Counted from the stretch's first letter, positions 3,578 through 56,508 are shown. The stretch: 64,000 bases of DNA from a virus (IMGVR_UViG_3300006217_000018:25725-89724); one strand, 5' to 3'. Program-made: numbers and translations. Notes: generated by a model from the letters alone, not told the origin.

Positions 3578-3650
3578 AGGCTCCTAGTTCAACGGTCAGA
3601 CCAATCGCCTCATAAACGATAAGTTTTGGTTCGAATCCCAAAGGAACCTA
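3578..3650 (+). tRNA. tRNA-like gene, anticodon CAU (Met/fMet/Ile2-like), slightly degenerate
   Basis: hand-folded cloverleaf: acceptor AGGCTCC/GGAACCT with one C-A mismatch, U8, D-stem GTTC/GACC (one U-C mismatch), G18G19, anticodon loop CTCATAA, TTCGAAT T-loop (8-nt loop or a stem mismatch). Confidence 0.45.
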
Positions 3651-3904
3651 CGTAATTAAATCAGTGTTTCATTAGATGAAGCATTGGTTTAATTGCCATA
3701 AAAATAAGGGGAAAAGTGTATGCATATATAGGCTTATATGTCATATATGCAATTTTTGTACTCATTTTTACATTTTTTGTACATATCACCGTTTTTTAAA
3801 AAAATGTGTTTTGTGTTTTTGCGAAGTAATTCTCAAATAATCTTGAAGACTATATAATGACCACCATGAATTGGTGAAATATATTATGAAAGGAGTTTTA
3901 AATT

Positions 3905-18021: not shown

Positions 18022-19041
18022 ATGAGATTGGAGGATTTGGAAATAAAAATTTTAAGAAATATAAAAGTACCAACTGGAAACATTATGATTGTTGAGGGTG
18101 ACAAGGGAAAACTTGAATGTCTGTCAATCGGAGACTATGGGAAAGAAGCGAACTTAAAGGCTGATTTCATGGGCTTGACAAGGGAGATAGACCATGTAGA
18201 ACATCAGCAAATGTTACCGCTTTCCGAAAAGTGGGTAATCACAATCAGCACACAGTACGGTTGCTCCATGAACTGCAAATTCTGTGATGTGCCGAAAGTC
18301 GGAAAAGGCATAAACGCTACATACGATGATTTGAAAAGTCAGATTGTAACCGGCTTATCATTGCACCCAGAAATCACTCATACAAACCGCTTGAATGTGC
18401 ATTATGCGAGAATGGGAGAGCCTACATGGAATTGGGCGGTTTTGGAGTTTACAAAGAATATGAGAGAAGAATTAAAACCATATATCGGTGACAGCCTTAT
18501 TCATCCCGTTGTTTCCACCATGTTACCGAAGAACAACACAAAATTAGCTGATTATCTTGAAGTGTGGATGGAGATTAAGAACAAAGATTTTTCGGGGGAT
18601 GCCGGATTGCAATTCTCCATCAATTCCACTTCTGACAGCGAAAGAGAGGATATGTTTAGCGGAAATTCTCTGACATTGCAGGAAATTTCAAATATTGGAA
18701 GAAGCCTTGAAATGCCAAAGGGAAGAAAAATTACATTGAATTTTGCGGTTGCTGATTATGAGGTCAATGCAGAGAAGATGAGAGATTTATTCAATCCCGA
18801 AAAATTCCTTGTCAAGTTGACACCTATGCACAAAACACATACCGCCCTTAAAAACGGTATTGAAACAAGCGGAGATTATACAACCATGTATCCATACCGA
18901 CACATTGAAGAGGATTTGAAGAAAGCCGGATTTGATGTGCTTGTGTTTATCGCAAGCGAGTATGAGGACTTGGGGCGCATCACTTGTGGAAATGCAATAT
19001 TGAGCGGAGCATTGCCAGAATGCCCATATGAGGAAGATTAA
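18022..19041 (+). CDS. RlmN/Cfr-family radical-SAM RNA (adenine C2/C8) methyltransferase
   Basis: ISTQYGCSMNCKFCDVPKVG is a CxxxCxxC radical-SAM motif in the RlmN context (E. coli SSQVGCALECKFCST); C-terminal ITCGNA aligns with the conserved C-terminal Cys (AACGQL) of RlmN. Confidence 0.6.
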   Translation: MRLEDLEIKILRNIKVPTGNIMIVEGDKGKLECLSIGDYGKEANLKADFMGLTREIDHVEHQQMLPLSEKWVITISTQYGCSMNCKFCDVPKVGKGINATYDDLKSQIVTGLSLHPEITHTNRLNVHYARMGEPTWNWAVLEFTKNMREELKPYIGDSLIHPVVSTMLPKNNTKLADYLEVWMEIKNKDFSGDAGLQFSINSTSDSEREDMFSGNSLTLQEISNIGRSLEMPKGRKITLNFAVADYEVNAEKMRDLFNPEKFLVKLTPMHKTHTALKNGIETSGDYTTMYPYRHIEEDLKKAGFDVLVFIASEYEDLGRITCGNAILSGALPECPYEED

Positions 19042-19124
19042 AGAGAAAAACTGCTTTGTGATTGTGAATTTAAAAAAGATTATTTGAGAAAGAGATTAAT
19101 GAGTAAAATATGGAGGTATAGATT

Positions 19125-19679
19125 ATGAGTAGTATTTTGGTTGTGGTTGATATGCAAAATGATTTTATTGACGGCTCACTCGGAACAAAGGAAGCAAAAG
19201 ACATTGTTGGAAATGTAGTAGATAAAATAAAAGGGTTTGATGGGAAGATTTTTGCAACATTGGATACACATGATGACAATTATTTAGAAACTTTTGAAGG
19301 GAAGCATTTACCAGTTGCCCATTGTATTAGAATGACTAACGGATGGGTTTTGAATAAGGATGTCCGTGATGTATTAGTGGGAAAGGATTATAAAATTATT
19401 GAGAAAAGAACGTTTGGATCAACCCGCCTTATAAATGAAATAAGAAGGATCTTGGATAGAAAAGAGAGGTTAGAAATTGAAATTGTTGGATTATGTACGG
19501 ACATATGTGTTGTATCAAACGCTTTGCTGTTGAAGGCAAATTTCCCAGATATTGAAATTTCTGTAGATGTGGATTGTTGTGCAGGCACTTCTCCGGATGC
19601 GCATAAAGCAGCATTGCTGACTATGAAAATGTGTCAAATCCATGTAAATAAAAAAACGGTGTGGGAAGAATTAGGATGA
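19125..19679 (+). CDS. pncA: nicotinamidase / isochorismatase-family cysteine hydrolase (PncA-like)
   Basis: VVVDMQNDFIDG (Asp), Lys, and GLCTDICV catalytic Cys region parallel PncA IVDVQNDF...GIATDHCV. Confidence 0.7.
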   Translation: MSSILVVVDMQNDFIDGSLGTKEAKDIVGNVVDKIKGFDGKIFATLDTHDDNYLETFEGKHLPVAHCIRMTNGWVLNKDVRDVLVGKDYKIIEKRTFGSTRLINEIRRILDRKERLEIEIVGLCTDICVVSNALLLKANFPDIEISVDVDCCAGTSPDAHKAALLTMKMCQIHVNKKTVWEELG

Positions 19680-20203
19680 TTAAAATTGTGAATATTTTTA
19701 AGCATTTTAAGAAGGTCTGCGTCCATAAATATTGGGTATTTTACTATTGTTGGAAGATGGGAATCCCTTTACAAGGACTATTCCATGATATGTCAAAATT
19801 TTCTTCTGTAGAATTTTGGGAGGGTGTGAAATATTATCAAGGAAATTCCAGCCCTATTGATGCTTGTAAAAAAGAGAATGGCTGGTCAAAGGCGTGGATG
19901 CATCATAAGGGGAGGAATAAGCATCACTATGAGTACTGGCAGGATAATTTTGATGATGGCGGAATAGCCATTGAGATGCCATTGAAGTATAAAAAAGAAA
20001 TGTTATGCGATTTTCTTGGGGCAGGAAGGGCATATTACGGTAAGGATTTTACATATGAAAAAGAATATATGTGGTGGAAAAATAGGATGAGTAAACCTAT
20101 GGCTATGCATGTAAATGACAAAAATTTTATCAATACATGGATGTTAAAAATAATGAATGAAGACAACAACGCCTTTAATAGATTAAAGAAAGTTGGAGAA
20201 TGA
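19661..20203 (+). CDS. hypothetical protein inside the NAD cluster (His/Trp-rich)
   Basis: 180-aa ORF; no motif recognised. Confidence 0.35.
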   Translation: MGRIRMIKIVNIFKHFKKVCVHKYWVFYYCWKMGIPLQGLFHDMSKFSSVEFWEGVKYYQGNSSPIDACKKENGWSKAWMHHKGRNKHHYEYWQDNFDDGGIAIEMPLKYKKEMLCDFLGAGRAYYGKDFTYEKEYMWWKNRMSKPMAMHVNDKNFINTWMLKIMNEDNNAFNRLKKVGE

Positions 20204-20206
20204 AAT

Positions 20207-21412
20207 ATGGATAGGATTATTAATAGTTTATTGGAGAATGATTTATACAAATTTAGTATGGGGCAAGTCATTCTTCATCAATTTTCGGACTATAAAACTA
20301 CTTGGACGTTTAAATGCCGTAATAAAGATATATTTTTTACGCCTGAAATGGTTCAAGAGATTAAGCGCCAAATTAAATTGTATTGTAGCCTTAAGTTTAC
20401 TGAACAGGAGCTTCAATATTTAAAAAATATTCGTTGGATTAAGGGAAATTATGTGGATTTTTTGCGTTTATGGCAGCCACGTTTTGAGGATTTTGATATA
20501 ACAGTTAATTCAAAATGTGGTCTGGTGATTGAAACTAAAGGTACATGGCTTAACACAAGTATGTATGAGATCCCGGTTTTAGCAATAGTAAATGAAGTGT
20601 ATTTTAAAATGGCACATAATTATAGACATTTGATGGAAGTGTTTACAGAAAAATTGGAGGAGAAAGCGGAATGGCTAGGAATATATCAAGGAAGGTATTA
20701 TCTCTCTTCTTTTAGTGAATTTGGACTTAGGCGCAGGCTTTCTGCCGAAGCTCAAGAAATGGCAGTGCAAAAGTTATCTGGAATCAAATATTGCTGCTCA
20801 GTTTTTGTTGGGACTTCTAACGTTTATTTGGCAATGAAGTATAATTTAATGCCCACAGGAACCCAAGCGCATGAGTTTATTATGTGTGTAGGCCAAGGGA
20901 ACCATAAGCATAATCCTGCTTATTCGAATTGGTATGCGATGGAAGCTTGGGTAAGAGAATATGGGATCCTTAATGGGACGGCTCTTACAGATACCATTGG
21001 GACAGATTGTTTTTTGAAAGATTTTAACCTTACTTATGCCACTTTATTCAGTGGTGTGAGACATGATAGTGGCAGTCCGTATGAATGGGGAGAAAAAATA
21101 ATTAACCATTATAAAGATCTAGGGATAGACCCAAGGAGTAAGACATTGCTTTTTAGTGACAGTTTAAACTTTGAAAAAGCAGATAAAATCTATCATTATT
21201 TTAAAGAAAGGGCAAAGATTGCGTTTGGGATAGGGACTTATATTTCTAATGATACGGATGTGGAGCCGTTGAATATTGTCATGAAAGTTACAAAATGTAA
21301 TGGACAAGATGTGGCAAAGATTTCAGATGATGTTGGGAAAGGAATTTGCAAGAACCTCGATTATGTAAACTATTTGCAGAGATGTATTGACTGGAGATTG
21401 CAGTATGAATAA
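20207..21412 (+). CDS. pncB: nicotinate phosphoribosyltransferase (NAPRTase, PncB-like)
   Basis: 401 aa; N-terminal LLENDLYKFSMGQ matches PncB LDTDAYKLHMQQ; size and order in a PncA-PncB-NMNAT-NadE cluster. Confidence 0.7.
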   Translation: MDRIINSLLENDLYKFSMGQVILHQFSDYKTTWTFKCRNKDIFFTPEMVQEIKRQIKLYCSLKFTEQELQYLKNIRWIKGNYVDFLRLWQPRFEDFDITVNSKCGLVIETKGTWLNTSMYEIPVLAIVNEVYFKMAHNYRHLMEVFTEKLEEKAEWLGIYQGRYYLSSFSEFGLRRRLSAEAQEMAVQKLSGIKYCCSVFVGTSNVYLAMKYNLMPTGTQAHEFIMCVGQGNHKHNPAYSNWYAMEAWVREYGILNGTALTDTIGTDCFLKDFNLTYATLFSGVRHDSGSPYEWGEKIINHYKDLGIDPRSKTLLFSDSLNFEKADKIYHYFKERAKIAFGIGTYISNDTDVEPLNIVMKVTKCNGQDVAKISDDVGKGICKNLDYVNYLQRCIDWRLQYE

Positions 21413-22013
21413 GTCAGTATTGATTTTTGGTGCTTTTAATCCTGTGACAAATGCCCATATAAATATGGGCATTTGTTGCAAGATGGTATATCCATCAGCT
21501 AATATTGTTTTTGTTCCATCTAATGATAAATTTTTAAAAGACTGGAAAAAGTACGGAGATGGGATGGTATTGGATGGAGATAAGAGATTCCTGCTATTAC
21601 ATGAGGCAGTGAAAAAATTCGGTTTTCATGTATCGAACATTGAGATAAATGGGACAGTAGATGGCAAAACATATAATACAATCCAGTATTATAGAAAAAT
21701 GGATCCTATTATATGCATTGGGGCAGACAAACTTTGTGAAATCCACAGATGGTATAAAGCAGAAGAGGTAGTTAGGGATAATAGGTTTTTGGTGATTACT
21801 AGGAATAATGACAATGGGAAATTACATGAATCATTAATGCAATATAATGGTAATTTTAGATATATTGAAGGGGCATATCAAGAAGTATCATCGACACAGA
21901 TAAGGGAGGCGTATGTCAATAACCAGTTAGGCTCGGTTAAGGATTATGTCCCAGAATGTGTTTTTGAGTATCTGGAAAACACAGATAACGTTTATCGCAA
22001 AAGTGGATTTTGA
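21387..22013 (+). CDS. nicotinate/nicotinamide mononucleotide adenylyltransferase (NadD/NMNAT-like cytidylyltransferase fold)
   Basis: VLIFGAFNPVTNAHINMG is the (H/T)xGH nucleotidyltransferase motif near the N-terminus; context. Confidence 0.6.
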   Translation: MTGDCSMNKSVLIFGAFNPVTNAHINMGICCKMVYPSANIVFVPSNDKFLKDWKKYGDGMVLDGDKRFLLLHEAVKKFGFHVSNIEINGTVDGKTYNTIQYYRKMDPIICIGADKLCEIHRWYKAEEVVRDNRFLVITRNNDNGKLHESLMQYNGNFRYIEGAYQEVSSTQIREAYVNNQLGSVKDYVPECVFEYLENTDNVYRKSGF

Positions 22014-22209
22014 ATTGAGGTGATGTAATGGACAAAGAATTGTGCTTTATTATCGAATGAGAAGAATTGTATTTGGAATAAATATTATTTGATTACAATT
22101 GAATCCCAATATTTTTTATATGCATTGAATTAGACATTGTAACTTGTAAGCCTACAGGAAAAAAATGGATATTTCAATATTGCCAGAAGCAAATCTATAT
22201 GTTTGATGA

Positions 22210-22995
22210 TTGGAGGTTAGGACAATGATAGATGATTTTAACGCAGTAGAAGTAAAGAATAAATGCGTAAATTGGATTAAAGGATGCTTTGAGGATAATG
22301 GCAAGGGTTGTAAAGCAGTAATTGGAATTTCAGGTGGAAAAGATAGTTCTGTAGTAGCTGCCCTATGTGCAGAGGCACTTGGTAAAGATAGAGTGTTTGG
22401 CGTTCTTATGCCAAATGGACTTCAGACAGATATTGACTGTAGTTATTTATTATGCAGGTATCTTGGAATTAATTTTGCTTTAGTTCCGATTGGACATACT
22501 TTGAATACTTTAAAGTATGATATTCTCAATGCTTTTGATGATAATGATAGTTTGACAGAACAGGCAGAAATTAATCTTCCTGCTCGTATCCGTATGGCAA
22601 CTTTATATGCTGTAAGCCAAAGTATGGATGGTAGGGTGGCAAATACATGTAATTTGTCAGAGGATTGGATAGGATATAGTACGAGGTATGGGGATTCAGT
22701 TGGAGATTTTAGTCCGCTTTCTAACCTTACGGTTACAGAAATTAAACAGATTGGGAGAGTGTTGGGGTTACCAGACAAATTAATTGATAAAACACCATCT
22801 GATGGGCTTTGCGGAAAGACAGATGAAGAGAATTTTGGCTTTACTTATGAGGTGTTGGATAGATACATCCGTACAGGTGAAATTGAAGACCAAGAAGTAA
22901 AAAAGAAAATTGATACAATGCATAAGAAAAACTTATTCAAATTACAGCTTATGCCAAGTTTTAATCCTGGCATTGGAGTTGGTCTTGTTTCTTAA
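22210..22995 (+). CDS. nadE: NH3-dependent NAD+ synthetase (NadE)
   Basis: GISGGKDSSVVAALC PP-loop, SEDWIGYSTRYGD motif, about 260 aa, typical of single-domain NadE. Confidence 0.8.
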   Translation: MEVRTMIDDFNAVEVKNKCVNWIKGCFEDNGKGCKAVIGISGGKDSSVVAALCAEALGKDRVFGVLMPNGLQTDIDCSYLLCRYLGINFALVPIGHTLNTLKYDILNAFDDNDSLTEQAEINLPARIRMATLYAVSQSMDGRVANTCNLSEDWIGYSTRYGDSVGDFSPLSNLTVTEIKQIGRVLGLPDKLIDKTPSDGLCGKTDEENFGFTYEVLDRYIRTGEIEDQEVKKKIDTMHKKNLFKLQLMPSFNPGIGVGLVS

Positions 22996-23041
22996 TAAAA
23001 GAGACAGGACGATTGTAATTTTATATTAGATTGGAGATTGT

Positions 23042-23569
23042 ATGAATTATTATATTGCAGATACTCATTTTGGACATGAAAATATCCTTAAATTATCAAA
23101 AAGACCATTTGAATCAATAAAAGAAATGGATAAAGCAATTATCGAAAATTGGAATAATAGAGTAACAGACAGTGATAATATTTATATCTTAGGAGATTTT
23201 GCATATAAAAGTCAAGACCCTATTTCATACCTTAAAAAATTGAAAGGGAAGAAACATTTGATTATAGGGAACCATGACAATAAATTATTAAGCAATAAGA
23301 AGTATGAAAAGTATTTCTCATCAGTTACTTTTATAAAAACGGTCAATGACAGTGGAAAACGGATTATATGCTGTCATTATCCTATGGTGGAGTGGGATGG
23401 GTATTATAGAAATACATTGCATTTTTATGGACATATCCACAACAATTTTGAGAATAGCACTAATCAATATATATCAAAAATTAAGAATGCTTATAATGTG
23501 GGAGTGGATATAATTGGATTTATGCCAAAGACTCTAAATGAAATATTGGAAGGAGTTGACAAGCCATGA
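23042..23569 (+). CDS. calcineurin-like metallophosphoesterase
   Basis: DTHFGH, GDF and GNHD metal-binding motifs in canonical order. Confidence 0.7.
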   Translation: MNYYIADTHFGHENILKLSKRPFESIKEMDKAIIENWNNRVTDSDNIYILGDFAYKSQDPISYLKKLKGKKHLIIGNHDNKLLSNKKYEKYFSSVTFIKTVNDSGKRIICCHYPMVEWDGYYRNTLHFYGHIHNNFENSTNQYISKIKNAYNVGVDIIGFMPKTLNEILEGVDKP

Positions 23570-24195
23570 CACAATACAGATGCTATAAAGAAAAAGACAT
23601 TTTAGATAAGTTGGGGAAAGATTTTTATATGACATATAAAGAACAGGATGATATTTTTGCCAGGGTTTTTTCTGAATGCAAGGATATTACCAATTCAAAA
23701 TGTTATATAACAAATAAAAAAGATATAAAAACCATTATAGAGTCAAAAGGGTATTGGAGCGAGGTGATTATTGGATTCTCATCTGGTAGAGAAAACATTG
23801 TATTATACTCTGATAAAGTGAAAATAGGTGATGAATCCGTAGGAAGAATATTAAAAAACAAGTTTTTGTCACCATATTTTTATAAGCAAGGGGAATATAT
23901 TCTGGCAAATAAAGCCCTTGATGCTTGGCTTGTATATAATGGAATTTCAAAAAAAGAATTAAGTAAAATTAGTATTGATGCTGAGAAAGAAGATGTTTAT
24001 TTTTATTATGGATTGAGCGAACCGATTGTTGAAGATGGAAAGTATTCTGGGAATTATGATACAGTCATGAGTCTTTCAGAAACAAATATCACAGATATTA
24101 TAACCAATATAAGGGATGTAGAAGTTGGGTTGAAAGTAGAAAAGATATTAACTTATTTTGGAAAAATCAAATTTGCCAATTTATGTGCTGAGTGA
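23566..24195 (+). CDS. hypothetical protein
   Basis: 209-aa ORF translationally coupled (ATGA) to the phosphoesterase. Confidence 0.4.
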   Translation: MTQYRCYKEKDILDKLGKDFYMTYKEQDDIFARVFSECKDITNSKCYITNKKDIKTIIESKGYWSEVIIGFSSGRENIVLYSDKVKIGDESVGRILKNKFLSPYFYKQGEYILANKALDAWLVYNGISKKELSKISIDAEKEDVYFYYGLSEPIVEDGKYSGNYDTVMSLSETNITDIITNIRDVEVGLKVEKILTYFGKIKFANLCAE

Positions 24196-24228
24196 AGATG
24201 TAAAAAATTGAAAGCAGAGGTGGGATGA

Positions 24229-24423
24229 ATGGGTTACACAATTACAGGGGTGAATGGGATTTGCCATGATGGAGATCCTGATGTTATTTGTTTCAGGGAT
24301 GTAGTAAATGATAGCGTAGTATCTCCTTGGTATGAATGGCAAGGAATATCGCAGAATATTTCAATGAATGATTTTTTACAAGAAGTTGAAGGCTGTAATT
24401 TGAGTGCTGAAAACTTTCGATAA
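24229..24423 (+). CDS. small hypothetical protein
   Basis: 64 aa. Confidence 0.3.
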   Translation: MGYTITGVNGICHDGDPDVICFRDVVNDSVVSPWYEWQGISQNISMNDFLQEVEGCNLSAENFR

Positions 24424-24452
24424 GGGCGTGGGAAGATGAAAACGGGATAATT

Positions 24453-24761
24453 ATGGATTATGGATTACGTCAGCAGTTCTGGATTCCAAGGAAAATAATT
24501 GAAAAAAATGAATGGGATTTAGATAACCTTAGAGTCCCATTAGGGGATAGAGTTTATAAGTTAAATTCAGAAATAAAGAACTGTCTATTTTGTGGCGGAG
24601 TAGCAGAAATTAATGTCTTACAAGAACTAAGGATAGGAGGGGATGAGGGGGTTGTTATTCAATGCACTAAATGTCTTATGAATACTGCATCAATTAACGG
24701 GACTTATTCTTCATCAAGTTCTGGTGTTATTAAGCTATGGAATAGGAGGGTTTTAAAATGA
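24453..24761 (+). CDS. small Cys-containing hypothetical protein
   Basis: CLFCGG...CTKC pairs. Confidence 0.3.
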   Translation: MDYGLRQQFWIPRKIIEKNEWDLDNLRVPLGDRVYKLNSEIKNCLFCGGVAEINVLQELRIGGDEGVVIQCTKCLMNTASINGTYSSSSSGVIKLWNRRVLK

Positions 24762-25060
24762 AGAAACGAATTTTAATTGTGGCATTGGCGGTTGTGATGG
24801 TGATTTGCCTGGTTGGGTGCGGCACTACATATCAAGAGGCGACAGGGCAGACAGAAAGTAATACAAGCGGTGATTTCGGAAATGGGTATTTTACTACAAT
24901 TTCCGAGTGGGGAGATGGAAGTTATGGAACATATAGAATTGTCTATGCAAATGACACGAAAGTAAAATATTTTGTCAATACATCTGGCTACAGAACAGGC
25001 ATTACCCCACTCTACAACGCAGACGGAACATTGCAGATTTATGAAGAAAGAGAGGATTGA
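24758..25060 (+). CDS. lipoprotein
   Basis: signal peptide MKKRILIVALAVVMVICLVGCG with lipobox. Confidence 0.5.
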   Translation: MKKRILIVALAVVMVICLVGCGTTYQEATGQTESNTSGDFGNGYFTTISEWGDGSYGTYRIVYANDTKVKYFVNTSGYRTGITPLYNADGTLQIYEERED

Positions 25061-25063
25061 GGA

Positions 25064-25477
25064 ATGATATTTTGGATTTTTGTAATTTTAACGGTTGCAG
25101 GGGTTACTGGAGGAATAGTTGCTTGCGAGTATGACTTTGATGTGCTTTCTTTATTCGGTTGGATTGTTGGTGTAATCAGCGGAATTGTTGCTGCAATCAT
25201 GTTGATTGTGATTGTCAGTACACATTGTACCGCAGACGCACAAGTTGAGTTATGGAAAGAGCAATACAAGGCACTTACATACAAACTGGAAAGCGGTGCG
25301 TGTCGTGACGAGCTTGGATTGTTAAGCAAAGAAATCATAGACGAAATTCAAGACTGGAATCAAGACGCAGTTTACAACAAGCGTATTCAGAAAGATTTTT
25401 GGATGGGTATATTTTATCCGAATGTCTTTGATGAATTTGAAACGATTGACTACGAGAGGTATCAAAGCAAAGATTAA
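25064..25477 (+). CDS. membrane protein (2 TM)
   Basis: two hydrophobic helices at the N-terminus. Confidence 0.4.
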   Translation: MIFWIFVILTVAGVTGGIVACEYDFDVLSLFGWIVGVISGIVAAIMLIVIVSTHCTADAQVELWKEQYKALTYKLESGACRDELGLLSKEIIDEIQDWNQDAVYNKRIQKDFWMGIFYPNVFDEFETIDYERYQSKD

Positions 25478-25559
25478 CCTCCCCATACACCTTATGGCAT
25501 GGCTTGAGGACGAACAGGAAGCAGAAGAACAGAAAGCACCGTTTTAAGGGAGGGCGAAC

Positions 25560-25775
25560 ATGATTATTGTAAAATTGACAGTTTTAGCGGTTATGGTGAC
25601 TGCATTATACATTTGGATTTGGAGAGCGTGGTTGAAATTCAATCCAGAAGAAACATTGAAGACAGCCTTTAACAGGAATTACCTGCCAAAAAGCGGATAT
25701 CCGATTATCCTTTTCCTTTTACTTGATGTAATCGGCATTTTCGCAAGCGCAATATACCTTTTGTTCTTTAGGTAG
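25560..25775 (+). CDS. small membrane protein (2 TM)
   Basis: 71 aa with two hydrophobic segments. Confidence 0.4.
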   Translation: MIIVKLTVLAVMVTALYIWIWRAWLKFNPEETLKTAFNRNYLPKSGYPIILFLLLDVIGIFASAIYLLFFR

Positions 25776-25846
25776 CCACACAGCGGACTTTCTTTCGTGG
25801 GAAGTCCGCAAATAATAAAAATTTATTTTATAGGAGGAATTTTAAG

Positions 25847-26446
25847 ATGACTAATATGTTAAATGGAATGTTTGGGAAAGTGCAGCCAGGAATGTGTAGG
25901 TTGTCAATGAGTGGCGGCATTGCCGTGAAGACAGCAAACGGCTACAAAAGCTACAATGTAAAATCTGGAAGACTGACGAACTGTGATAGCTTCGTATTCA
26001 ACATTGGGGAGGAATTTTTCTTTGTAATTCCAACCAACAAAGCAGAGGTTGGCGACATTATCTTGGTTGCCGGAAAGCCGAAATGTGTTATTGAGTCCAA
26101 AAAGAATATGCTAACGGTTATCAACTACGAGGATTCAACAGTGGAGAACATTCTGCCAGAGCGTCATGTATTTATGGGCAATACGTACTTCTATGGGAAA
26201 ATCGTTTCCATGTTCGGCAGCGACATGATTAAGGGCAAGAAAGGAACCAACAAAATCATGCAGTACATGATGATGTCAGAAATGATGAAAGGAAATGAGA
26301 ACAGCGGAGAATCCGGAATGAGTGCAATGCTTCCATTTATGATGATGGGCGGCAGCATGGGAAATATGTTTGAGGGAATGTTTGATTTTGACGGCGAAGA
26401 CGAAGAAGAAAATGCCGAAGAATCCGAAGAAAGCGAGGAAGAATAA
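25847..26446 (+). CDS. Met-rich protein with acidic EE-rich tail
   Basis: MMMSEMMKG...MLPFMMMGGSMGNMFEGMF then ...EEENAEESEESEEE. Confidence 0.4.
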   Translation: MTNMLNGMFGKVQPGMCRLSMSGGIAVKTANGYKSYNVKSGRLTNCDSFVFNIGEEFFFVIPTNKAEVGDIILVAGKPKCVIESKKNMLTVINYEDSTVENILPERHVFMGNTYFYGKIVSMFGSDMIKGKKGTNKIMQYMMMSEMMKGNENSGESGMSAMLPFMMMGGSMGNMFEGMFDFDGEDEEENAEESEESEEE

Positions 26447-26447
26447 T

Positions 26448-27320
26448 ATGGGAAGCGGAAGTTGGACGAGGGATAGCTTCAGAAGTTATTCATCAACAAA
26501 GAAAATGAGTGTAGGAACTGACGGGTCTATTTCAGGAGATTATCATGCACAGGATATGTTCAAACAGAGAATGATTGCGCCAGAATTAGACCCAAAGAAT
26601 AAAATGCGTGAGTGTTGCGATTCAACAGAACACCCGAACACCATTCCTGTTATTTTAGGACTTGATGTAACGGGTAGCATGGGTGGCGCGGCAGTTGAAG
26701 TCGCAAAGAAGCTGAATGTAGTTATGACAAGACTTTATGAAAAGGTTGCAGATGTGGAATTTATGATTATGGGCATTGGGGATTTAGCCTATGACAATGC
26801 GCCAATACAGGCTTCACAATTTGAATCAGATATAAGGATTGCAGAGCAGCTTGATAAGATTTACTTCGAGGGAGGCGGTGGAGGAAACTCTTTTGAATCA
26901 TATACGGTGGCATGGTATTTCGGCTTGCGGCATACAAAATTGGATTGCTGGAACCGTGGCAAGAAAGGAATTGTCATTACTATGGGTGATGAGCCACTTA
27001 ATCCTTATTTGCCAAAATCTCCACTTTCCAGAGTGACAGGTGATAATTTGCAGGGCGATGTAGAAACAAAGGATTTATACGAAGAAGCAAGCCGAAAATT
27101 TGATATTTACCACCTTGCAGTTAATGATTCGCAGACTTCATACAGATACCACGAATCTGGTATCAAAGAAACATTCGGAAAATATCTTGACGAAAATCAT
27201 TTGCGTACTGTAAGCATGGATAATATTGCAAACGCCATTGTGGACATCGTAACCAATACAGGAACGTGGGCGACAGAAACAAGAACAGAAGAAAATGCAG
27301 GAGGGATGATTTCGTGGTAA
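26448..27320 (+). CDS. von Willebrand factor A (vWA) domain protein, TerY-like
   Basis: MIDAS-type DVTGSMGG motif; start moved to the ATG at 26448 just after the upstream stop. Confidence 0.55.
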   Translation: MGSGSWTRDSFRSYSSTKKMSVGTDGSISGDYHAQDMFKQRMIAPELDPKNKMRECCDSTEHPNTIPVILGLDVTGSMGGAAVEVAKKLNVVMTRLYEKVADVEFMIMGIGDLAYDNAPIQASQFESDIRIAEQLDKIYFEGGGGGNSFESYTVAWYFGLRHTKLDCWNRGKKGIVITMGDEPLNPYLPKSPLSRVTGDNLQGDVETKDLYEEASRKFDIYHLAVNDSQTSYRYHESGIKETFGKYLDENHLRTVSMDNIANAIVDIVTNTGTWATETRTEENAGGMISW

Positions 27321-28498
27321 AGAAAAACATCAAAGTTGTAATCGGTGCAAACTTTGGTGATGAAGGAAAAGGCTTGGTGGCAGATTATTTTTGCCACCAA
27401 GCCGCCCTACGGGGTGAAAACTGTATTGTAGTGTGCCATAACGGTGGCGCACAAAGAGGGCATACGGTAGACACGGCGGAGGGGTCGCACCATGTGTTCC
27501 ACCATTTTGGTTCCGGGGTTTTTGCAGGAGCAGATACTTATTTATCAAAGGAGTTTATTGTAAATCCCATTTTATTCAGACAAGAATGGGAAGAATTGCA
27601 GAAATTAGGATATGAACCAACAGTATATTTGAATCCTTCGTGCAGAGTAACAACACCATTTGATATGATAATCAATCAGATTTTGGAAGAAAACCGTTCT
27701 AATGGGCGACATGGAAGCTGTGGCATGGGGATTTTTGAAACCATTAAACGTTATGAGGAAAACTATGGTTATCCGGCATGGGTTTTATTGGAGAATTGCG
27801 GCAAGCGGAACAAAGATGCAATCAAAGCCATAAAACATACATATCTGCCAAAACGCTTTAACGAATTGAAAATGCGGTCAAGTAGAGAATGGGAAGAAAT
27901 AATAAATGCTGATGGGTTGATTGAACAGTTTCTTTCAGATTTGGAATTTACGGCAAGTCATGTAACGGTTTGCGGAGATACAAACGCACTCGAAAAATAC
28001 CAGAATATTATTTTCGAGGGAGGGCAAGGACTTCTGTTAGACCAGAATAATAAAGAATATTTTCCTCATTTGACACCAAGCAACACCGGATTAAAGAATC
28101 CGGCGGAAATGATTTTAAGATTGTTTCCAGATTCAAATGTTGAAGTCTGTTATGTCACAAGACCATATCTAACAAGGCACGGGGCGGGCAGGATTGATAA
28201 TGAGTGCGGAAAAGAAGAAATCAATCCAGATATGGAAGATTTGACAAATGTACCGAACCAACATCAAGGGACAATGCGTTATGGGAAAATGAATGTTTCT
28301 GAATTATTAAACAGAATACAAAAAGATTTTTCTAATGGGAAAGGCTGGAAAATTTCTCTTTCCATAACACACAGCAATGAAGTTCCTGGAATATTTGAAT
28401 CGGTTGATAGCTTCGAGGTAAAGGACTTAAAACAGCAATTTGACGTTATTTATCACTCATTCGGAAAGGCAAGGAACGATATAAAGCAAGCTGATTAA
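27314..28498 (+). CDS. adenylosuccinate synthetase homologue (PurA family; candidate PurZ)
   Basis: VVIGANFGDEGKGLVADYF is the P-loop GxxxGDEGKGK; VVCHNGGAQRGHTV corresponds to PurA VVRYQGGHNAGHT; likely GTG start at 27314. Confidence 0.65.
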   Translation: MVKKNIKVVIGANFGDEGKGLVADYFCHQAALRGENCIVVCHNGGAQRGHTVDTAEGSHHVFHHFGSGVFAGADTYLSKEFIVNPILFRQEWEELQKLGYEPTVYLNPSCRVTTPFDMIINQILEENRSNGRHGSCGMGIFETIKRYEENYGYPAWVLLENCGKRNKDAIKAIKHTYLPKRFNELKMRSSREWEEIINADGLIEQFLSDLEFTASHVTVCGDTNALEKYQNIIFEGGQGLLLDQNNKEYFPHLTPSNTGLKNPAEMILRLFPDSNVEVCYVTRPYLTRHGAGRIDNECGKEEINPDMEDLTNVPNQHQGTMRYGKMNVSELLNRIQKDFSNGKGWKISLSITHSNEVPGIFESVDSFEVKDLKQQFDVIYHSFGKARNDIKQAD

Positions 28499-28571
28499 AG
28501 AGAAAAACCGCTTTGTGATTGTTAATTTTGAGAATGTTTATTATTTGGAGAGTTAGGAGGGGGTTGGAGAA

Positions 28572-28823
28572 ATGGAACCTATGAACATTTATTCATTGCA
28601 AAAATACGCGCAAGACAAAGGACATAACACCGGAAGATTTCTTTGTGTAAATGATAAAGGAATTTTCGAAATGCAATGGCTTGATGCTTATTACGGACTT
28701 GTCAAACTGTTGCAACCCGAACAGAAAGAAGATGGGTTTATAACTATAAGACAGTTGATTGAATTGTTCGGGAACGAGCAGAAATATATGCCAACAATCG
28801 GATATGAAAACGAAGATGATTAA
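28572..28823 (+). CDS. hypothetical protein
   Basis: 83 aa. Confidence 0.35.
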   Translation: MEPMNIYSLQKYAQDKGHNTGRFLCVNDKGIFEMQWLDAYYGLVKLLQPEQKEDGFITIRQLIELFGNEQKYMPTIGYENEDD

Positions 28824-28838
28824 GGAGGATTAACCGAT

Positions 28839-29174
28839 ATGAGGATTTTATCGCAGGACGGAAAAATTGATTTTCCATACGAAAAAGTTTGTTTAGAGGT
28901 ATCAGATAGCGGAAAGATATTCGCGCAAGGCGATATATGGGGAGCAGAAGATAATTATATTGAAGTTGCTGCATATGAAAACGAAACCAAAGCAAGAAAG
29001 GCTATGGAGATGTTGAGAGAGGAATACACAGGAATGCCAAGCATCAGAAGAATGGATGATTTGTACGGAAGATTTAAGCACACAGGAAAGAAAGACTTTG
29101 AATTATTTATAGAACACATGGTTTTGAAAAAATGTTATTTCCAATTTCCCGCTGATGACGAAGTGGAGGTATGA
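28839..29174 (+). CDS. hypothetical protein
   Basis: 111 aa, RBS AAGGAGGA. Confidence 0.4.
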   Translation: MRILSQDGKIDFPYEKVCLEVSDSGKIFAQGDIWGAEDNYIEVAAYENETKARKAMEMLREEYTGMPSIRRMDDLYGRFKHTGKKDFELFIEHMVLKKCYFQFPADDEVEV

Positions 29175-29288
29175 CATGAAAACATCCGCATTAGAACAAG
29201 TCCAAAAGGATTTTGAACATGGTGTTTACAACATGACCGACACGGGAAATGTACGGGTTGCGGCAACTGCTGTTCAAATATTCTGCCA

Positions 29289-29573
29289 ATGACAGACAAG
29301 GAAATTGAGGTTATTAGACGGTGCATAAAGAAAAATCACATCAAAGAGTGTAAGCATACAATACCGCTTGCAAATCCGGTTATTGACATGACTTGCCCAT
29401 TCCTCAATACAGATAAGAAAACGGAGAAATGCACGATTTACAGTGTCCGTCCGGCGATATGCAGATGTTTTATCTGTTCTGAACCGAATGGAGCGTTGAA
29501 GAACAAGGAGTTATGGAGTGGGGTTAGAAAGCCTGTGAATGTGAGGGAGACATTTTATGGGGAGGTGTTTTGA
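29289..29573 (+). CDS. YkgJ/UPF0153-like zinc- or iron-chelating Cys-rich protein (start probably further upstream)
   Basis: CPFLNTDKK...CTIYSVRPAICRCFIC matches the family C-terminal half; the same frame upstream reads GKCTGCGNCCSN, the CxxCGxCC motif, so the gene likely starts around 29170-29245. Confidence 0.45.
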   Translation: MTDKEIEVIRRCIKKNHIKECKHTIPLANPVIDMTCPFLNTDKKTEKCTIYSVRPAICRCFICSEPNGALKNKELWSGVRKPVNVRETFYGEVF

Positions 29574-29788
29574 AGATGAACGCATTTACAGCACTAATGC
29601 GCAACGGAAGGTTAATGCAAAAAGCAGAAGATATTATAAACGGTTTTCTTGAAAGTGAAACAGAAAATCACAAGGTAGACTGTTATCTTGTTAATCCAGA
29701 CGGCACAAGAATTGCAATTCAAAAAGGTTTCAAACTTGAGAATTATGAGTATACAATTTGTGCGAATGAAAGCGAGGTATCGAAATGA
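29570..29788 (+). CDS. hypothetical protein
   Basis: 72 aa. Confidence 0.3.
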   Translation: MKMNAFTALMRNGRLMQKAEDIINGFLESETENHKVDCYLVNPDGTRIAIQKGFKLENYEYTICANESEVSK

Positions 29789-30204
29789 CCAAAGAAACAA
29801 AACAAATGAACATAAAAGATTTTAAAGTCGGTCAGACGGTTTATGTTGAACTGACTAGGAACGCAAGCAGAGGAAAGACACCTGAACAGTGCATTGAGGA
29901 ATGGGAGATTACTTCTGTTGGTAGGAAATACATAAAAGCTTGCAAGAAAGAAAGCGGAATATTTCGATTTGAAACTACTTTTGAATTTCAAGATTATAAT
30001 GAAAGATTTGTTGAGAAATCGGCTTACAGCGAAAAAAATTATGTTCTCTATGCCACAAAACAGGAGATTGAGGAAAAACAAGAGAAAAGCAGACTGTTTC
30101 AGGAGATTGAACAGCGGTTCAGTTATGGTTCGCAAAAGGATATTTCCTTAGAGCAGTTGAGGGCAATACATGGGATTTTGGAGGGAGGAAACGAGGGAGA
30201 ATGA
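29785..30204 (+). CDS. hypothetical protein
   Basis: 139 aa. Confidence 0.4.
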   Translation: MTKETKQMNIKDFKVGQTVYVELTRNASRGKTPEQCIEEWEITSVGRKYIKACKKESGIFRFETTFEFQDYNERFVEKSAYSEKNYVLYATKQEIEEKQEKSRLFQEIEQRFSYGSQKDISLEQLRAIHGILEGGNEGE

Positions 30205-30600
30205 AAGAAAGGCTGATTTGTGAATTTATGGTAATACCTGCATTTGTTTATCTCTCATTTGAGTTTGAAAACAAGAGGCTTGAAAAGGTATTGCGTGTAA
30301 TATCGGCAACTTTATTATTGCTTTTAGCCTGTTATTTGGGCGTGGTATTGCCGCAGTAGAAAAGGAAGTGATTTGATTGATTTTGAAGTGTTTGGGGAGG
30401 TTCGGTAGTGTTTGATTTTATCAAAAGATTATTTTGTAAACATGAGTTTGAAGATATATCAGGAGAAATCAGGGTATGGAGCAGCGACAATTTTTATAAA
30501 TATCCAATAGCACTTAGGAGGGTGTTTGTGTGCAAGAAGTGTTTGAAAAAGAAAACTATAAAATATTAAGGAATATGCAGACGAAAGCGAGGTGGTTTAG

Positions 30601-31296
30601 ATGTTCGTTAGATGTATTGGCACTGGTAGTAGCGGAAATTGTTACGCCTTATATGACAATGACGGCAAGATACTTCTCTTAGATTTGGGTTTGGCAAGGA
30701 AAGAAATACTGAAAGGAATTGACTTTAATGTATCTGATGTTGTAGGGGCGTTAGTCAGCCACGGGCACGGCGACCATTCAAAGGCAGTTAATGATTTTGG
30801 GAATATGGGAATACCTGTTTTCAAGCCCTATGATGAAACAAAGGCTTGCCCTCTCAAAATCAGATATGGCAGTTTCAGTATACAGGCGTTCAAAGTTCCG
30901 CATGACGGAGTACCTTGCTATGGATTTTACATAACGGTTGACGGACACAGAATTTTGTATGCTACGGATTATTTACATCTTCCCGTATCGTTCAGGAAAA
31001 AGAGATTAACAAATATGATTGTAGAATGTAACTACCAGAAAGAATATTTGAATAAAGAGTCTCCAAAATACGACCACCAGATAAAAGGTCACTGTTCGCT
31101 TGATACGCTGATTGAAAAGGTCATTAAAGAGAACATGACAAGCGACCTTAGAACGATTGTATTGTGCCATTTAAGTGGTGATAGTGCAAACCCAGAGGAA
31201 TGTCTGTCAGAAGTTCAAAAAGTCGTTGGAGAGGGCGTTAAATGCGCCTGTGCGGCGGCAGGAGAAACGGTTGAATTAAGTTTGTATCCATTTTAA
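30601..31296 (+). CDS. metallo-beta-lactamase-fold hydrolase (RNase Z / PhnP-like size class)
   Basis: LLLDLG...SHGHGDHS is the HxHxDH motif; 231 aa. Confidence 0.6.
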   Translation: MFVRCIGTGSSGNCYALYDNDGKILLLDLGLARKEILKGIDFNVSDVVGALVSHGHGDHSKAVNDFGNMGIPVFKPYDETKACPLKIRYGSFSIQAFKVPHDGVPCYGFYITVDGHRILYATDYLHLPVSFRKKRLTNMIVECNYQKEYLNKESPKYDHQIKGHCSLDTLIEKVIKENMTSDLRTIVLCHLSGDSANPEECLSEVQKVVGEGVKCACAAAGETVELSLYPF

Positions 31297-35741: not shown

Positions 35742-37565
35742 TTGGAAGAAAATAAGAAAATAAAATTAACAGTAAACGAATTATTTTCAGGAATAGGATG
35801 TCAAACAAGAGGATTTAGGGACTCAGGAGTATTTGACATTGAAGTAGTAAATACATCAGAAATAAGCAAAGAATCTGTGTTATCATATGCTGCTATCCAT
35901 TGTGGCTTGACGGATGGAATGGTTATTTCATATAAGGGGTATCCGTCCAAGGAAGAGATGGCTCAGCACTTAATGGATATAAATTTGGGCTATGATCCTG
36001 AGAAAGGCAAGAAGTCCGATTGGCTTAAATTAGTGAAGAGAAAGAAGAAGGATCTGGAGAAATATTGGTTGGCTTGTAAACTGACGCATAATTTAGGGGA
36101 TATAAGTAAAATTGAAGAATTGCCATATGCAGATTTATGGACATGTTCTTTTCCTTGCACGGATATCAGCGTTTGCGGAAAAATGAAAGGGTTAAATCCT
36201 GATAGTGGTACAAGAAGTAGCCTGCTATGGGAAAACATAAGATTGCTCAAGAAAGCAAAAGATAGTAATTCCCTTCCAAAATACATAATGTTTGAAAATG
36301 TCAAAAATCTTGTGAGTAAAAAATTTATCAATAATTTTAATGATTTGTTAGGAATATTAGATGGGTTGGGGTTTAATTCTTATTACTCGATAATCAACGG
36401 GAAAAATTGTGGAGTCCCGCAATCAAGAGAAAGGGTTTTTGTAATATCTATTAGGAAAGATATTGATAAAGGTAAATATGTATTTCCTAAACCATTCGAT
36501 ACTGGTATACGCCTAAAAGATATTTTAGAAAAAGAAGTTGATGAAAAATATTATTTACCAGACGAAAAAGTAAAAAAATTTCTAAAAACTATTGATTTAG
36601 AAAAAATTTTCAGGATTGATAATGAACTCCATCAAGTAGGGTATATCAATAATTATAACGGGGATGCAAATAGGGTGTATTCAGATAATATTAGCAGGAC
36701 GTTAAAATCCGAGGCCGGTGGAGGCGGTGCAAAAACTGGATGGTACTTAACAGAAAATAATATTTTGAAAGTTGGAGAGATTAATTCCTCGCAAGACGGA
36801 ATAGTCGTATCACCAGAAGGAATATCACCAACACATACGGCAGGACATGGTAATAATGCTAAAATCATATGTGGAATAGATAAAACAACCAACAACCCTA
36901 AGATAATTGAAAATGCAAATTGTATAACTGCAAGTGAAAATCGGGGATCAAGCAATAGGAAAAAAGAAGGAACGGCTGTTCTTGAAATTCCAGATATTAC
37001 GGTCTTAGTTTCAAATCAAGGGACTAAATCTGAGAAAGAAATAGATTTTGCATGTACATTACTTGCTAGAGATCATAAAGGATTTGGAAATCAACCAACA
37101 AATGCCGTGATTAACGGATTATATAAAACAATTAGAATCCGTAAATTAACTCCGAAAGAATGTTATAAACTCATGGGATTGACTTTCGAAGATTGTGATA
37201 AAGCTGCAGAAATAGGTATTGCGAATACACATCTATATAAACAAGCAGGGAATGGAATAATCACAAATTGCTGTGCGTTATTAGCGGAGCATTTATATAA
37301 GGCTCAATATGATGATACATATATATGTACCGATGAAAAACTCCAAGAAAGTTTTATTCAACAACATGTAGATGAGTCTATTTGTTGTGAACATAAATCA
37401 GCTATATTAGATGGTGTTGGTGCTGCTATGCGTGGAAGGTATAATTCAAATGAAGAAATAAAACAAAAAATAGAAATACGGAATGATGGATTGTCAAATG
37501 CCATCACCACAGCTCCAAAAGATAGTTTAGTTGTAGAAAATTTTCAGAAACTGCCAATGAATTGA
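35742..37565 (+). CDS. DNA (cytosine-5)-methyltransferase with an unusually long variable/TRD region (607 aa)
   Basis: motif I LFSGIGCQ, IV SFPCTDIS, VI MFENVKNL, VIII QSRERVFVIS, IX RVYSDNISRTLKSEAGGGG, X RKLTPKECYKLMGL...AGNGI in canonical order. Confidence 0.8.
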   Translation: MEENKKIKLTVNELFSGIGCQTRGFRDSGVFDIEVVNTSEISKESVLSYAAIHCGLTDGMVISYKGYPSKEEMAQHLMDINLGYDPEKGKKSDWLKLVKRKKKDLEKYWLACKLTHNLGDISKIEELPYADLWTCSFPCTDISVCGKMKGLNPDSGTRSSLLWENIRLLKKAKDSNSLPKYIMFENVKNLVSKKFINNFNDLLGILDGLGFNSYYSIINGKNCGVPQSRERVFVISIRKDIDKGKYVFPKPFDTGIRLKDILEKEVDEKYYLPDEKVKKFLKTIDLEKIFRIDNELHQVGYINNYNGDANRVYSDNISRTLKSEAGGGGAKTGWYLTENNILKVGEINSSQDGIVVSPEGISPTHTAGHGNNAKIICGIDKTTNNPKIIENANCITASENRGSSNRKKEGTAVLEIPDITVLVSNQGTKSEKEIDFACTLLARDHKGFGNQPTNAVINGLYKTIRIRKLTPKECYKLMGLTFEDCDKAAEIGIANTHLYKQAGNGIITNCCALLAEHLYKAQYDDTYICTDEKLQESFIQQHVDESICCEHKSAILDGVGAAMRGRYNSNEEIKQKIEIRNDGLSNAITTAPKDSLVVENFQKLPMN

Positions 37566-38439: not shown

Positions 38440-39188
38440 TCATATATAGATTTTGGTGATTATAATTTTATATTCTGTTGGATGCCTTATGTCAGTTTAT
38501 CGGCAAAGGAAGAAGGGGTCTGATAAATGGAGAGAAGCAAACATGATTATAATAAGGATAAATATTCATGATGACTTTGATGTGGGTTTATATTATAAGA
38601 CAGATGACGAGCATTTTTTATGATTTTCCATGAACTAATTTTGATTCTTGGCTGAGATGGGATGATGAAAAGGCATACAATAGTTTTGGTAATGGATCTG
38701 CTATGAGGTGTTCATATATTGGAGAATATTTTGATACAGAAAAAGAAGTAATAGAATGGGCAACAAAATCAGCAAATTGTACACATAATCATCCTGAAGG
38801 AATCAAAGGAGCTGTCGCAACTTCTATGTGCATTTTCATGGCAAAGACAGGAGCGTCCAAGACGGATATATCCAATTATGCGAAAAAACAATATCCAGTT
38901 GAGTCTTATAAATACAGTGTTGAGTATGGATTAGATGAATATAGAGAAGTGTATAGATGGGATGCTACTTGCCAAGGGAGTGTGCCAGTAGCAATTAGAT
39001 GTTTTTTGGACAGTGAAGACTATGAGTCCTTTTTGCGGAATGTTTATTCACTTCCTTGTGACATGGATACCTTGTGTGCTATTGGTGGTGGGATTGCAGA
39101 AGAATTTTATCATGGTACTGGTTTTGACGAGGAACAGATTTTAAGAAAATATTTAGATGAAGATTTATATAAGATTGCGAGAATGTAG
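38440..39188 (+). pseudogene. ADP-ribosylglycohydrolase (ARH/DraG family), frameshifted or truncated N-terminus
   Basis: intact ORF 38703-39188 carries ARH C-terminal motifs (CTHNHPEG); upstream FGNGSAMR (ARH GNGAAMR) lies in frame but behind a TGA; further upstream YYKTDDEHFL (ARH TDDT-like) in the same frame before its own TGA. Confidence 0.45.
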
Positions 39189-48510: not shown

Positions 48511-48571
48511 CTTATATTTATTATACACTGCGTAGGCTGATATCTGCGCAGTGTATGGAAAGGAAAGAATT

Positions 48572-56362: not shown

Positions 56363-56508
56363 GGTAACAAAACCAGAGATTCATCGGTAAATTAGAAAAA
56401 TTTTAAGGAGGAAAAGAGATTTGACATGTCGTAAAGTATACTTTGCTCCTGATAAATTTGATAGAACTGAAGAGAGAAAAGAAATCTGATAAAGATGTGC
56501 AATATTTA

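Follow-up and report, generated by a model that had tools for sequence, protein, structure and literature searches.

The viral DNA stretch IMGVR_UViG_3300006217_000018:25725-89724, analysed over its full length of 64,000 nucleotides and hereafter called the window, carries an operon-like group of genes whose products belong to the PncA, PncB, NadD and NadE families. Together, these four families make up the complete deamidating route from nicotinamide to nicotinamide adenine dinucleotide (NAD+), and a gene of the DUF5662 family is embedded among them. The cluster is interpreted as a phage-borne NAD+ salvage module, whose benefit to the phage most likely lies in the upkeep of NAD+ while it is being destroyed. 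A probability of roughly 70% is assigned to this interpretation as a whole. The window has a G+C content of ~33% and its substantial open reading frames (ORFs) are all located on the + strand. Seven consecutive + strand genes are found between positions 19125 and 24195, where every cluster ORF reported on that strand in the initial annotation could be located again:

19125-19679, + strand: PncA-type nicotinamidase, 184 aa (PF00857 Isochorismatase, 7e-24)
19676-20203, + strand: DUF5662 protein, 175 aa (PF18907, 4e-30)
20207-21412, + strand: PncB nicotinate phosphoribosyltransferase, 401 aa (NAPRTase_N and NAPRTase; NF003704, TIGR01514)
21405-22013, + strand: NadD-type nicotinate-mononucleotide adenylyltransferase, 202 aa (CTP_transf_like, 1.7e-9)
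22014-22224: AT-rich intergenic gap of 211 nt preceding NadE
22225-22995, + strand: NH3-dependent NAD+ synthetase NadE, 256 aa, single domain (PF02540 NAD_synthase, 8.6e-51)
23042-23569, + strand: small calcineurin-like metallophosphoesterase, 175 aa (Metallophos PF00149, 29 bits)
23566-24195, + strand: orf209, an ORFan whose gene overlaps the phosphoesterase gene by 4 nt

The chemistry of the individual steps is established knowledge for these enzyme families. In the proposed pathway, PncA would convert nicotinamide to nicotinate and ammonia (NH3), and PncB would combine nicotinate with phosphoribosyl pyrophosphate (PRPP), with the participation of adenosine triphosphate (ATP), to yield nicotinate mononucleotide (NaMN). 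NadD would then form nicotinate adenine dinucleotide (NaAD) from NaMN and ATP, and NadE would produce NAD+ from NaAD, ATP and NH3, with possible reuse of the NH3 released in the first step. During infection, such a module would raise or restore the NAD+ pool of the host from free nicotinamide or gut niacin. The selective benefit would be to keep NAD+ available while NADase defences (SIR2, TIR, SEFIR and similar) destroy it and release nicotinamide. Judging from the sequences, it is very probable that the four enzymes form a working pathway leading from nicotinamide or nicotinate to NAD+.

The preferred start codons are ATG 19676 for DUF5662, ATG 21405 for NadD and ATG 22225 for NadE, in agreement with the gene calls on identical public contigs. 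The PncA and DUF5662 genes share an ATGA overlap, DUF5662 and PncB are separated by 3 nt and the start of NadD overlaps the end of PncB by 8 nt. These overlapping or closely spaced junctions suggest that the four genes are co-translated. A GGAGG ribosome-binding site is present upstream of the NadE start codon. The 211-nt gap contains no convincing ORF of at least 20 aa. A riboswitch or regulatory RNA was rejected, as no Rfam match was obtained in the gap or elsewhere in the cluster and the RNA fold z-score of the gap is -0.46. Promoter and terminator scans returned the same counts as in shuffled sequence.

PncB clears two curated models, NF003704 with 474.7 bits (cut-off 379) and TIGR01514 with 408.9 bits (cut-off 269.55). 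Both Pfam domains of the two-domain architecture, NAPRTase_N and NAPRTase, were found, and the protein matches Pseudomonas aeruginosa PncB2 (PDB 1YIR) at 5e-87 across 392 residues. Its GTQAHE motif at residues 218-223, containing His222, aligns with GTMAHE of 1YIR and GTQAHE of 3OS4. The histidine of GTxAHE in PncB is the site of ATP-coupled autophosphorylation.

NadE obtains 177 bits with TIGR00552, for which the cut-off is 63.65, and displays the SGGKDS PP-loop at residues 36-41. PF02540 is its only domain, a glutaminase domain being absent, and its closest PDB structures are those of Pyrococcus horikoshii (2E18, 3.7e-32) and Francisella (3FIU, 9.4e-28). In NadD, the motifs GAFNPVTNAH (residues 9-18) and SSTQIR (162-167) are present, and G9, F11, H18, S162 and S163 are invariant in a 9-sequence alignment (A3). 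With the single NadD sequence as a query, the best PDB match is Staphylococcus aureus NadD (2H29, 4.7e-8); with the A3 profile, Bacillota NadD enzymes rank first and 2H29 is matched at 1.1e-38. The initial annotation had described an (H/T)xGH adenylyltransferase: the adenylyltransferase is borne out, but the motif actually reads T-N-A-H, with alanine in place of glycine, like the H-T-A-H of S. aureus NadD. A eukaryote-like adenylyltransferase was also considered, on account of the resemblance of GAFNPVTNAH to the human GSFNPITNMH, and was dropped as the profile ranks Bacillota NadD first.

PncA passes the Pfam PF00857 model with 85 bits (cut-off 27). The catalytic triad D9/K94/C128 (Asp-Lys-Cys) and the metal ligands D47/H49/H66 (LDTH ... 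AHC) are invariant across 24 phage homologues (alignment A2). Residues D9, D47, H49, H66 and C128 align with D10, D52, H54, H71 and C133 of P. horikoshii PncA (1IM5). In the pairwise alignment with 1IM5, K87 and not K94 lies opposite the catalytic K94 of the P. horikoshii enzyme; the catalytic lysine of the phage PncA is nevertheless assigned to K94, because this is the invariant one and because of the alignment with 6KUA. When the A2 profile was compared to the PDB, solved nicotinamidases came on top, beginning with 1IM5 (1.4e-20) and followed by 2H0R, 5ZN8, 3PL1, 3S2S and 3O90; yeast Pnc1 and Mycobacterium tuberculosis PncA are included among the matched nicotinamidases.

The enzyme assignments of the initial annotation stand. 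The nicotinamidase with a Cys-hydrolase signature agrees with the PF00857 match and with the intact triad and metal site. The 401-aa nicotinate phosphoribosyltransferase passes the equivalog cut-offs and retains GTxAHE, and the NH3-dependent NAD synthetase with SGGKDS keeps its motif and scores above the TIGR00552 cut-off. A loss of catalytic residues from the PncB- or NMNAT-like ORFs had been envisaged as a possible objection; upon alignment, these residues are intact (H222 in PncB, GAFNPVTNAH and SSTQIR in NadD). The gene content predicted for the series nicotinamide, nicotinate, NaMN, NaAD and NAD+ is likewise upheld by family scores, catalytic residues and recurrent synteny.

The recurrence of the cluster was evaluated using two sets of related loci. 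A PncB-anchored scan of IMG/VR viral contigs produced 35 loci, the longest contig measuring 416 kb, and 80 viral loci were retrieved through DUF5662. In the PncB-anchored set, PncA is present in 30 loci and NadE in 28, and all four functions lie within 6 kb in 27. Dereplication at 90% PncB identity leaves 23 lineages, 19 of which possess both PncA and NadE. The same NAD functions are found together in 76 of the 80 DUF5662-anchored loci, and their clustering is far above chance. The composition of the module is variable: the adenylyltransferase slot is occupied by a NadD-type enzyme in 9 PncB-anchored loci and by a NadM-type enzyme in 18, NadD-NadE fusion proteins of 440-486 aa are encoded in L026 and L032, and L007, L008 and L010 encode a 652-aa glutamine-dependent NadE. 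Because such non-orthologous replacements occur within a fixed module, they indicate that selection would act on the pathway rather than on individual genes, and they are the strongest computational sign to that effect.

Variant adenylyltransferase or NadE genes were recorded in the related loci L002, L007-L010, L012, L016, L018-L024, L026-L028 and L030-L032. A more distant locus, L200 (MT835470.1, positions 14000-31000), belongs to a human-gut phage whose PncB is 35% identical. Its gene order is ThyX, metallophosphoesterase, second metallophosphoesterase, isochorismatase, PncB, NadE, AAA ATPase, NMNAT-like and Nudix; it is an independent version of the NAD module with phosphoesterases beside it.

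Phage pathways of this general kind have been described previously. Complete salvage or Preiss-Handler pathways were reported in 174 of 668 gut jumbo phages (Li et al., Microbiome 2024; PMC11662467). The same work had already presented clustered pncB-nadD-nadE genes (e.g. Kuafu_71), phage pncA and the idea of counter-defence (PMC11662467). The window cluster resembles these clusters in its contiguous pncB, nadD and nadE genes, in its occurrence on large gut phage genomes and in the predicted autonomous synthesis of NAD+. The NAD-jumbo definition (pncB, nadD and nadE clustered on a genome of more than 200 kb) also applies here, as the genes are contiguous and identical proteins occur on a 243,188-bp contig. 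The published clusters, however, comprise three genes starting from nicotinate and were annotated by KEGG and BLAST only, whereas the window cluster adds a constant PncA and the embedded DUF5662 gene. These two features, the constant PncA first step and the embedded DUF5662 gene, seem to be undescribed so far.

Three NAD+ reconstitution pathways (NARP) of phages have been validated experimentally and defeat NADase defences by resynthesis of NAD+: NARP1 (Adps and Namat), NARP2 (Nampt and Nmnat; Osterman et al. 2024) and NARP3 (PnuC and NadR; PMC13464706). NARP2, exemplified by NadV/NatV of Vibrio phage KVP40, is similar to the predicted route in that it starts from nicotinamide and PRPP, is independent of ADP-ribose and rebuilds NAD+ however it was cleaved. 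It proceeds in two amidated steps via nicotinamide mononucleotide (NMN), whereas four steps via nicotinate, NaMN and NaAD are predicted for the window. No Nampt was found in the cluster, the phosphoribosyltransferase being a NAPRTase according to the equivalog models. NARP1 and NARP1-AP, which differ by the Macro-domain phosphatase Adpp, are likewise phage NAD+ resynthesis operons, and NARP1-AP provides a precedent for an embedded accessory hydrolase. NARP1 recycles ADP-ribose via ADP-ribose pyrophosphate (ADPR-PP), and the accessory protein of the window has a predicted HD fold, not a Macro domain; Pfam and NCBIfam searches revealed no PRPS-like or Namat-like domain in the cluster. NARP3 restores NAD+ as well and counters Sir2-HerA, but it imports nicotinamide riboside and employs a bifunctional kinase/adenylyltransferase (PMC13464706). 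The window cluster has neither, and no PnuC or NadR domain was detected in the cluster or in the scanned ORFs of the window.

The bacterial PncA-PncB-NadD-NadE salvage pathway, especially that of Bacillota, involves the same four families and the same predicted chemistry, and the phage NadD and PncA are closest to bacterial or archaeal enzymes. The bacterial genes are usually scattered or in small operons, whereas the phage genes are compacted together with DUF5662. A literature search retrieved no experimentally tested phage Preiss-Handler route and no 'NARP4', and the NARP1/2 and NARP3 papers contain no discussion of a Preiss-Handler-type route. The initial annotation had presented the cluster as a distinct third solution to NAD+ depletion. 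This claim has to be withdrawn, since NARP3 is already the third validated route (PMC13464706) and phage Preiss-Handler clusters have been published along with the counter-defence idea (PMC11662467).

Counter-defence is only tentatively proposed as the main selected function of the module, at slightly under even odds. The proposal is made because NADase defences release nicotinamide, because PncA is nearly always present and because the neighbouring genes look like anti-defence genes; its logic would be like that of NARP2, since PRPP is required and ADP-ribose is not recycled. The alternative is a general auxiliary metabolic module that would supply NAD+ from gut niacin or nicotinamide to the NAD+-consuming enzymes of the phage and to the heavy redox and ligation demand of its replication, or that would complement NAD-limited hosts. 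Such a role is a serious possibility, although not the favoured one. According to Li et al. 2024 (PMC11662467), jumbo phages with NAD pathways carry numerous NAD+-consuming enzymes as well and in many cases complement pathways of the host. The identical sequence is borne by contigs that reach 243 kb, and NARP2 itself has been described as constitutive over-synthesis. PncB moreover occurs alone on some very large contigs (L014, 394 kb; L017, 416 kb) and on the 15.5-kb L013, where it is the only gene of the pathway. On the other hand, no NAD+-dependent ligase, sirtuin or ADP-ribosyltransferase was seen in the 64-kb window, the presence of PncA in 30 of 35 loci points to nicotinamide, the product of NADases, as the entry substrate, and the neighbouring genes are mostly anti-defence-like.

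A number of observations weigh against the interpretation of the cluster as a complete salvage module maintained for NAD+ upkeep under attack. PncB lacks a nearby PncA in 5 of the 35 loci. Two of the enzymes fall below their equivalog cut-offs: PncA scores 25.5 bits with NCBIfam PRK11609 (cut-off 174), a model of the longer E. coli-type PncA, and NadD obtains 84.9 bits with TIGR00482 (cut-off 112.45). The anti-defence neighbourhood amounts to guilt by association only. The probable hosts (Bacillota-like by inference) usually own the same pathway, so the gain would be in flux and not in a new capability. The route is also costly, consuming PRPP and several ATP per NAD+ and requiring four enzymes where NARP2 requires two. 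Finally, for a large phage, a plain supply role is as natural as counter-defence.

The order of the last two steps could also be that of Francisella, with NadE acting as an NMN synthetase (NaMN to NMN) and the adenylyltransferase then converting NMN to NAD+; this is considered improbable for the window. The Francisella NadE 3FIU is the second-best solved relative of the phage NadE and is matched over its full length, and in Francisella the replacement of NadD by NadM goes together with a NadE acting as NMN synthetase (PMC3376133). The F. tularensis route (PncB, then the NMN-synthetase NadE, then NadM) further resembles the phage loci in its short single-domain NadE, and a NadM-type enzyme, present instead of NadD in 18 of 35 related loci, is paired with NadE in many of them. 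The window differs in carrying a NadD-type adenylyltransferase, with Bacillota NadD on top of the profile matches. In addition, the best NadE relative, 2E18, is the conventional P. horikoshii enzyme, and where NadM is the partner of an archaeal NadE, the latter acts as a true NAD synthetase (PMC3376133). On these grounds, the Francisella-type order would be more plausible for the NadM-type loci than for the window.

It is highly improbable that the isochorismatase-family gene is not a nicotinamidase, in which case the module would be a three-step Preiss-Handler pathway starting from nicotinate, accompanied by an unrelated cysteine hydrolase. The isochorismatase superfamily is diverse in function, the E. 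coli-type PncA equivalog is far under its cut-off and a biuret amidohydrolase model gives a similar score. Against this, neither the D/K/C triad nor the metal site D47/H49/H66, specific to nicotinamidases, shows any variation, and 30 of the 35 loci have the gene in synteny with PncB. The top eight PDB matches of the A2 profile are nicotinamidases or isochorismatase-family hydrolases, all of which rank above the carbamoylsarcosine amidase-related 3EEF. That the region would be chromosomal DNA of a bacterium, or a set of host genes acquired by a prophage, is barely credible: all four enzymes are from ordinary bacterial housekeeping families, but the ORFs of the window all lie on one strand, phage-type genes (Bro/ANT, Lar, many PHROG families, phage VG64) are present without ribosomal or core bacterial genes, and the relatives were recovered from viral contigs in IMG/VR that reach 416 kb.

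DUF5662 is a conserved fifth, accessory component of the phage cluster, set between PncA and PncB and predicted to adopt an HD-superfamily fold. Its H...HD...HH...HH...D pattern is kept even in phage copies of 35-46% identity and in bacterial copies. The gene lies inside the NAD cluster in 78 of the 80 viral loci retrieved through it, with the order PncA-DUF5662-PncB-NadD-NadE in 73 of them; in the PncB-anchored set, it is found in three distinct gene orders and in 9 of the 23 dereplicated lineages. The family extends to at least 595 bacterial species genomes and to thousands of metagenomic proteins, the bacterial copies being mainly from Clostridia and Selenomonadales. Of 80 loci from bacterial genomes, 77 have no NAD gene in the vicinity, and the genes that surround DUF5662 there vary and are not informative. 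No sequence relative was found in the PDB, nothing significant in BFVD and no mention of the family in the literature. Its probable role is that of a metal-dependent phosphohydrolase with a pyridine- or ADP-ribose-type nucleotide as substrate.

A Nudix gene is located in the NAD cluster of six loci devoid of DUF5662, at 3972-4793 in L007, L008 and L010 and at about 7950-8545 in L012, L016 and L022. The NAD cluster of MT835470.1 likewise contains a Nudix gene (13873-14427), and none of the DUF5662-containing loci does. This mutual exclusivity may reflect functional equivalence or, for the 273-aa Nudix protein, an NrtR-like regulator. A Nudix motif scan of the window was negative. A more ambitious proposal is that the five-gene unit constitutes a fourth, deamidating NAD+ reconstitution pathway defeating NADase immunity, with DUF5662 as its dedicated accessory phosphohydrolase; in this strong form, it is regarded as doubtful. 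Adpp of NARP1-AP would be the analogue of DUF5662, which might degrade an ADP-ribose-derived product or immune signal, feed ribose phosphate into the pathway or remove pyrophosphate.

The phosphoesterase displays the motifs DTH (7-9), GD (51-52), GNHD (76-79) and GHIH (130-133), exceeds the PF00149 cut-off of 21.5 bits and corresponds to phrog_547, annotated 'phosphoesterase' (3.9e-45). Its nearest structure is Aquifex aq_1665 (1XM7), and 1,208 phage records covering many hosts contain homologues. Of the 35 PncB-anchored loci 34 lack it, as do all 80 DUF5662-anchored loci, and metallophosphoesterases are found near NAD genes only in two distant lineages, L030 and MT835470.1. As a generic phage family missing from nearly all related loci, it was mostly rejected as a part of the module. 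From the overlap of their genes, orf209 appears to be translationally coupled to the phosphoesterase. Pfam, NCBIfam and PHROG yielded no match for orf209, a search among 5.8 billion proteins returned only the identical sequence, and its single-sequence AlphaFold2 model is unusable, with a predicted local distance difference test (pLDDT) score of 32. The grouping of both genes with the NAD genes in the initial annotation is therefore not retained: the phosphoesterase occurs in few related loci and orf209 has no homologues, so neither is a conserved part of the module.

Proteins identical to DUF5662 and orf209 are encoded together on the 243,188-bp contig mentioned above. By gene content, the cluster is situated in an accessory region rich in genes of anti-defence type: Lar, several DNA methyltransferases, a Mom/DruA-like gene, a PurZ-like gene, RNA ligase and kinase/HD tRNA-repair genes, and a fragment of an ADP-ribosylglycohydrolase beside a SLOG gene. 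The following further features of the window were recorded:

3578-3651, + strand: tRNA-Met (CAT) gene
13974-14825, + strand: Thg1-like tRNA-His guanylyltransferase (phrog_4717, 1.8e-89)
14857-16935, + strand: 692-aa DUF8224 / phrog_1735 protein; 557 phage records contain homologues
18022-19041 and 50634-51710, + strand: two radical-SAM-type proteins
24453-24761, 35742-37565, 52756-53409, 56443-57000 and 57073-57834, + strand: a dense anti-restriction set made of Lar, directly 3' of the cluster, three DNA methyltransferases and a DruA/Mom-like protein
27266-28498, + strand: adenylosuccinate-synthetase-like protein (PF00709, 1.6e-33; phrog_1211, 1.8e-66), PurZ-type of 2-aminoadenine (Z-base) phages
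38703-39188, + strand: 161-aa ORF whose match to ADP-ribosylglycohydrolase is confined to the C-terminal half (PF03747 positions 127-275)
39335-39751, + strand: YAcAr/SLOG-family gene adjoining the ADP-ribosylglycohydrolase fragment
44445-46368 and 59740-60363, + strand: two genes for RNA ligases and a kinase-HD fusion (kinase domain AAA_33)
47584-49309, + strand: SPFH/Band-7 protein beside a TerF-like vWA protein
58662-59234, + strand: Rv2179c-like 3'-5' exoribonuclease
60832-61761, + strand: DHH/DHHA1 phosphoesterase

The radical-SAM-type protein directly 5' of PncA has a CxxxCxxC motif, a weak similarity to RlmN/Cfr and a strong match to phrog_24834; its gene accompanies the NAD cluster in only 1 of the 80 related loci. 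The PurZ-like gene raises the possibility of a modified phage genome. The ADP-ribosylglycohydrolase gene may be truncated or interrupted: a GNGSAMR motif is located just 5' of the ATG of the 161-aa ORF, in the same frame, and the N-terminal half of the enzyme was not found. With the adjoining YAcAr/SLOG-family gene, it forms an ADP-ribose-related pair 15 kb downstream of the NAD cluster. The RNA ligase and kinase-HD set looks like the tRNA repair systems used by phages against anticodon nucleases, and the DHH/DHHA1 phosphoesterase could be a nanoRNase or a cyclic-nucleotide phosphodiesterase. The DUF8224 protein shares 62% identity with proteins from Bacillus phages of Herelleviridae type and from a Clostridioides phage. 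These phage matches, the Bacillota relatives of NadD and the occurrence of bacterial DUF5662 in Clostridia and Selenomonadales are hints of a host in Bacillota.

NAD+ depletion is among the commonest bacterial anti-phage strategies, and three phage routes for rebuilding NAD+ have been validated. The Preiss-Handler-type phage route, so far described by annotation only, is widespread among large gut phages; the analysis retrieved over 100 contigs from IMG/VR. The cluster, although unsurprising to a specialist, would lend itself well, and at low cost, to experiments on a possible fourth NAD+ reconstitution pathway. Through its conserved phage gene, the uncharacterised DUF5662 family might be given a first function in a concrete and cheap way, and it would gain one if the five-gene unit proved to be such a pathway. 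Should the counter-defence purpose be true, phages would be repurposing the ordinary four-step salvage chemistry of their hosts, the set of recyclable NADase products would be widened, and the module would be relevant to the engineering of phages against NADase-armed gut bacteria.

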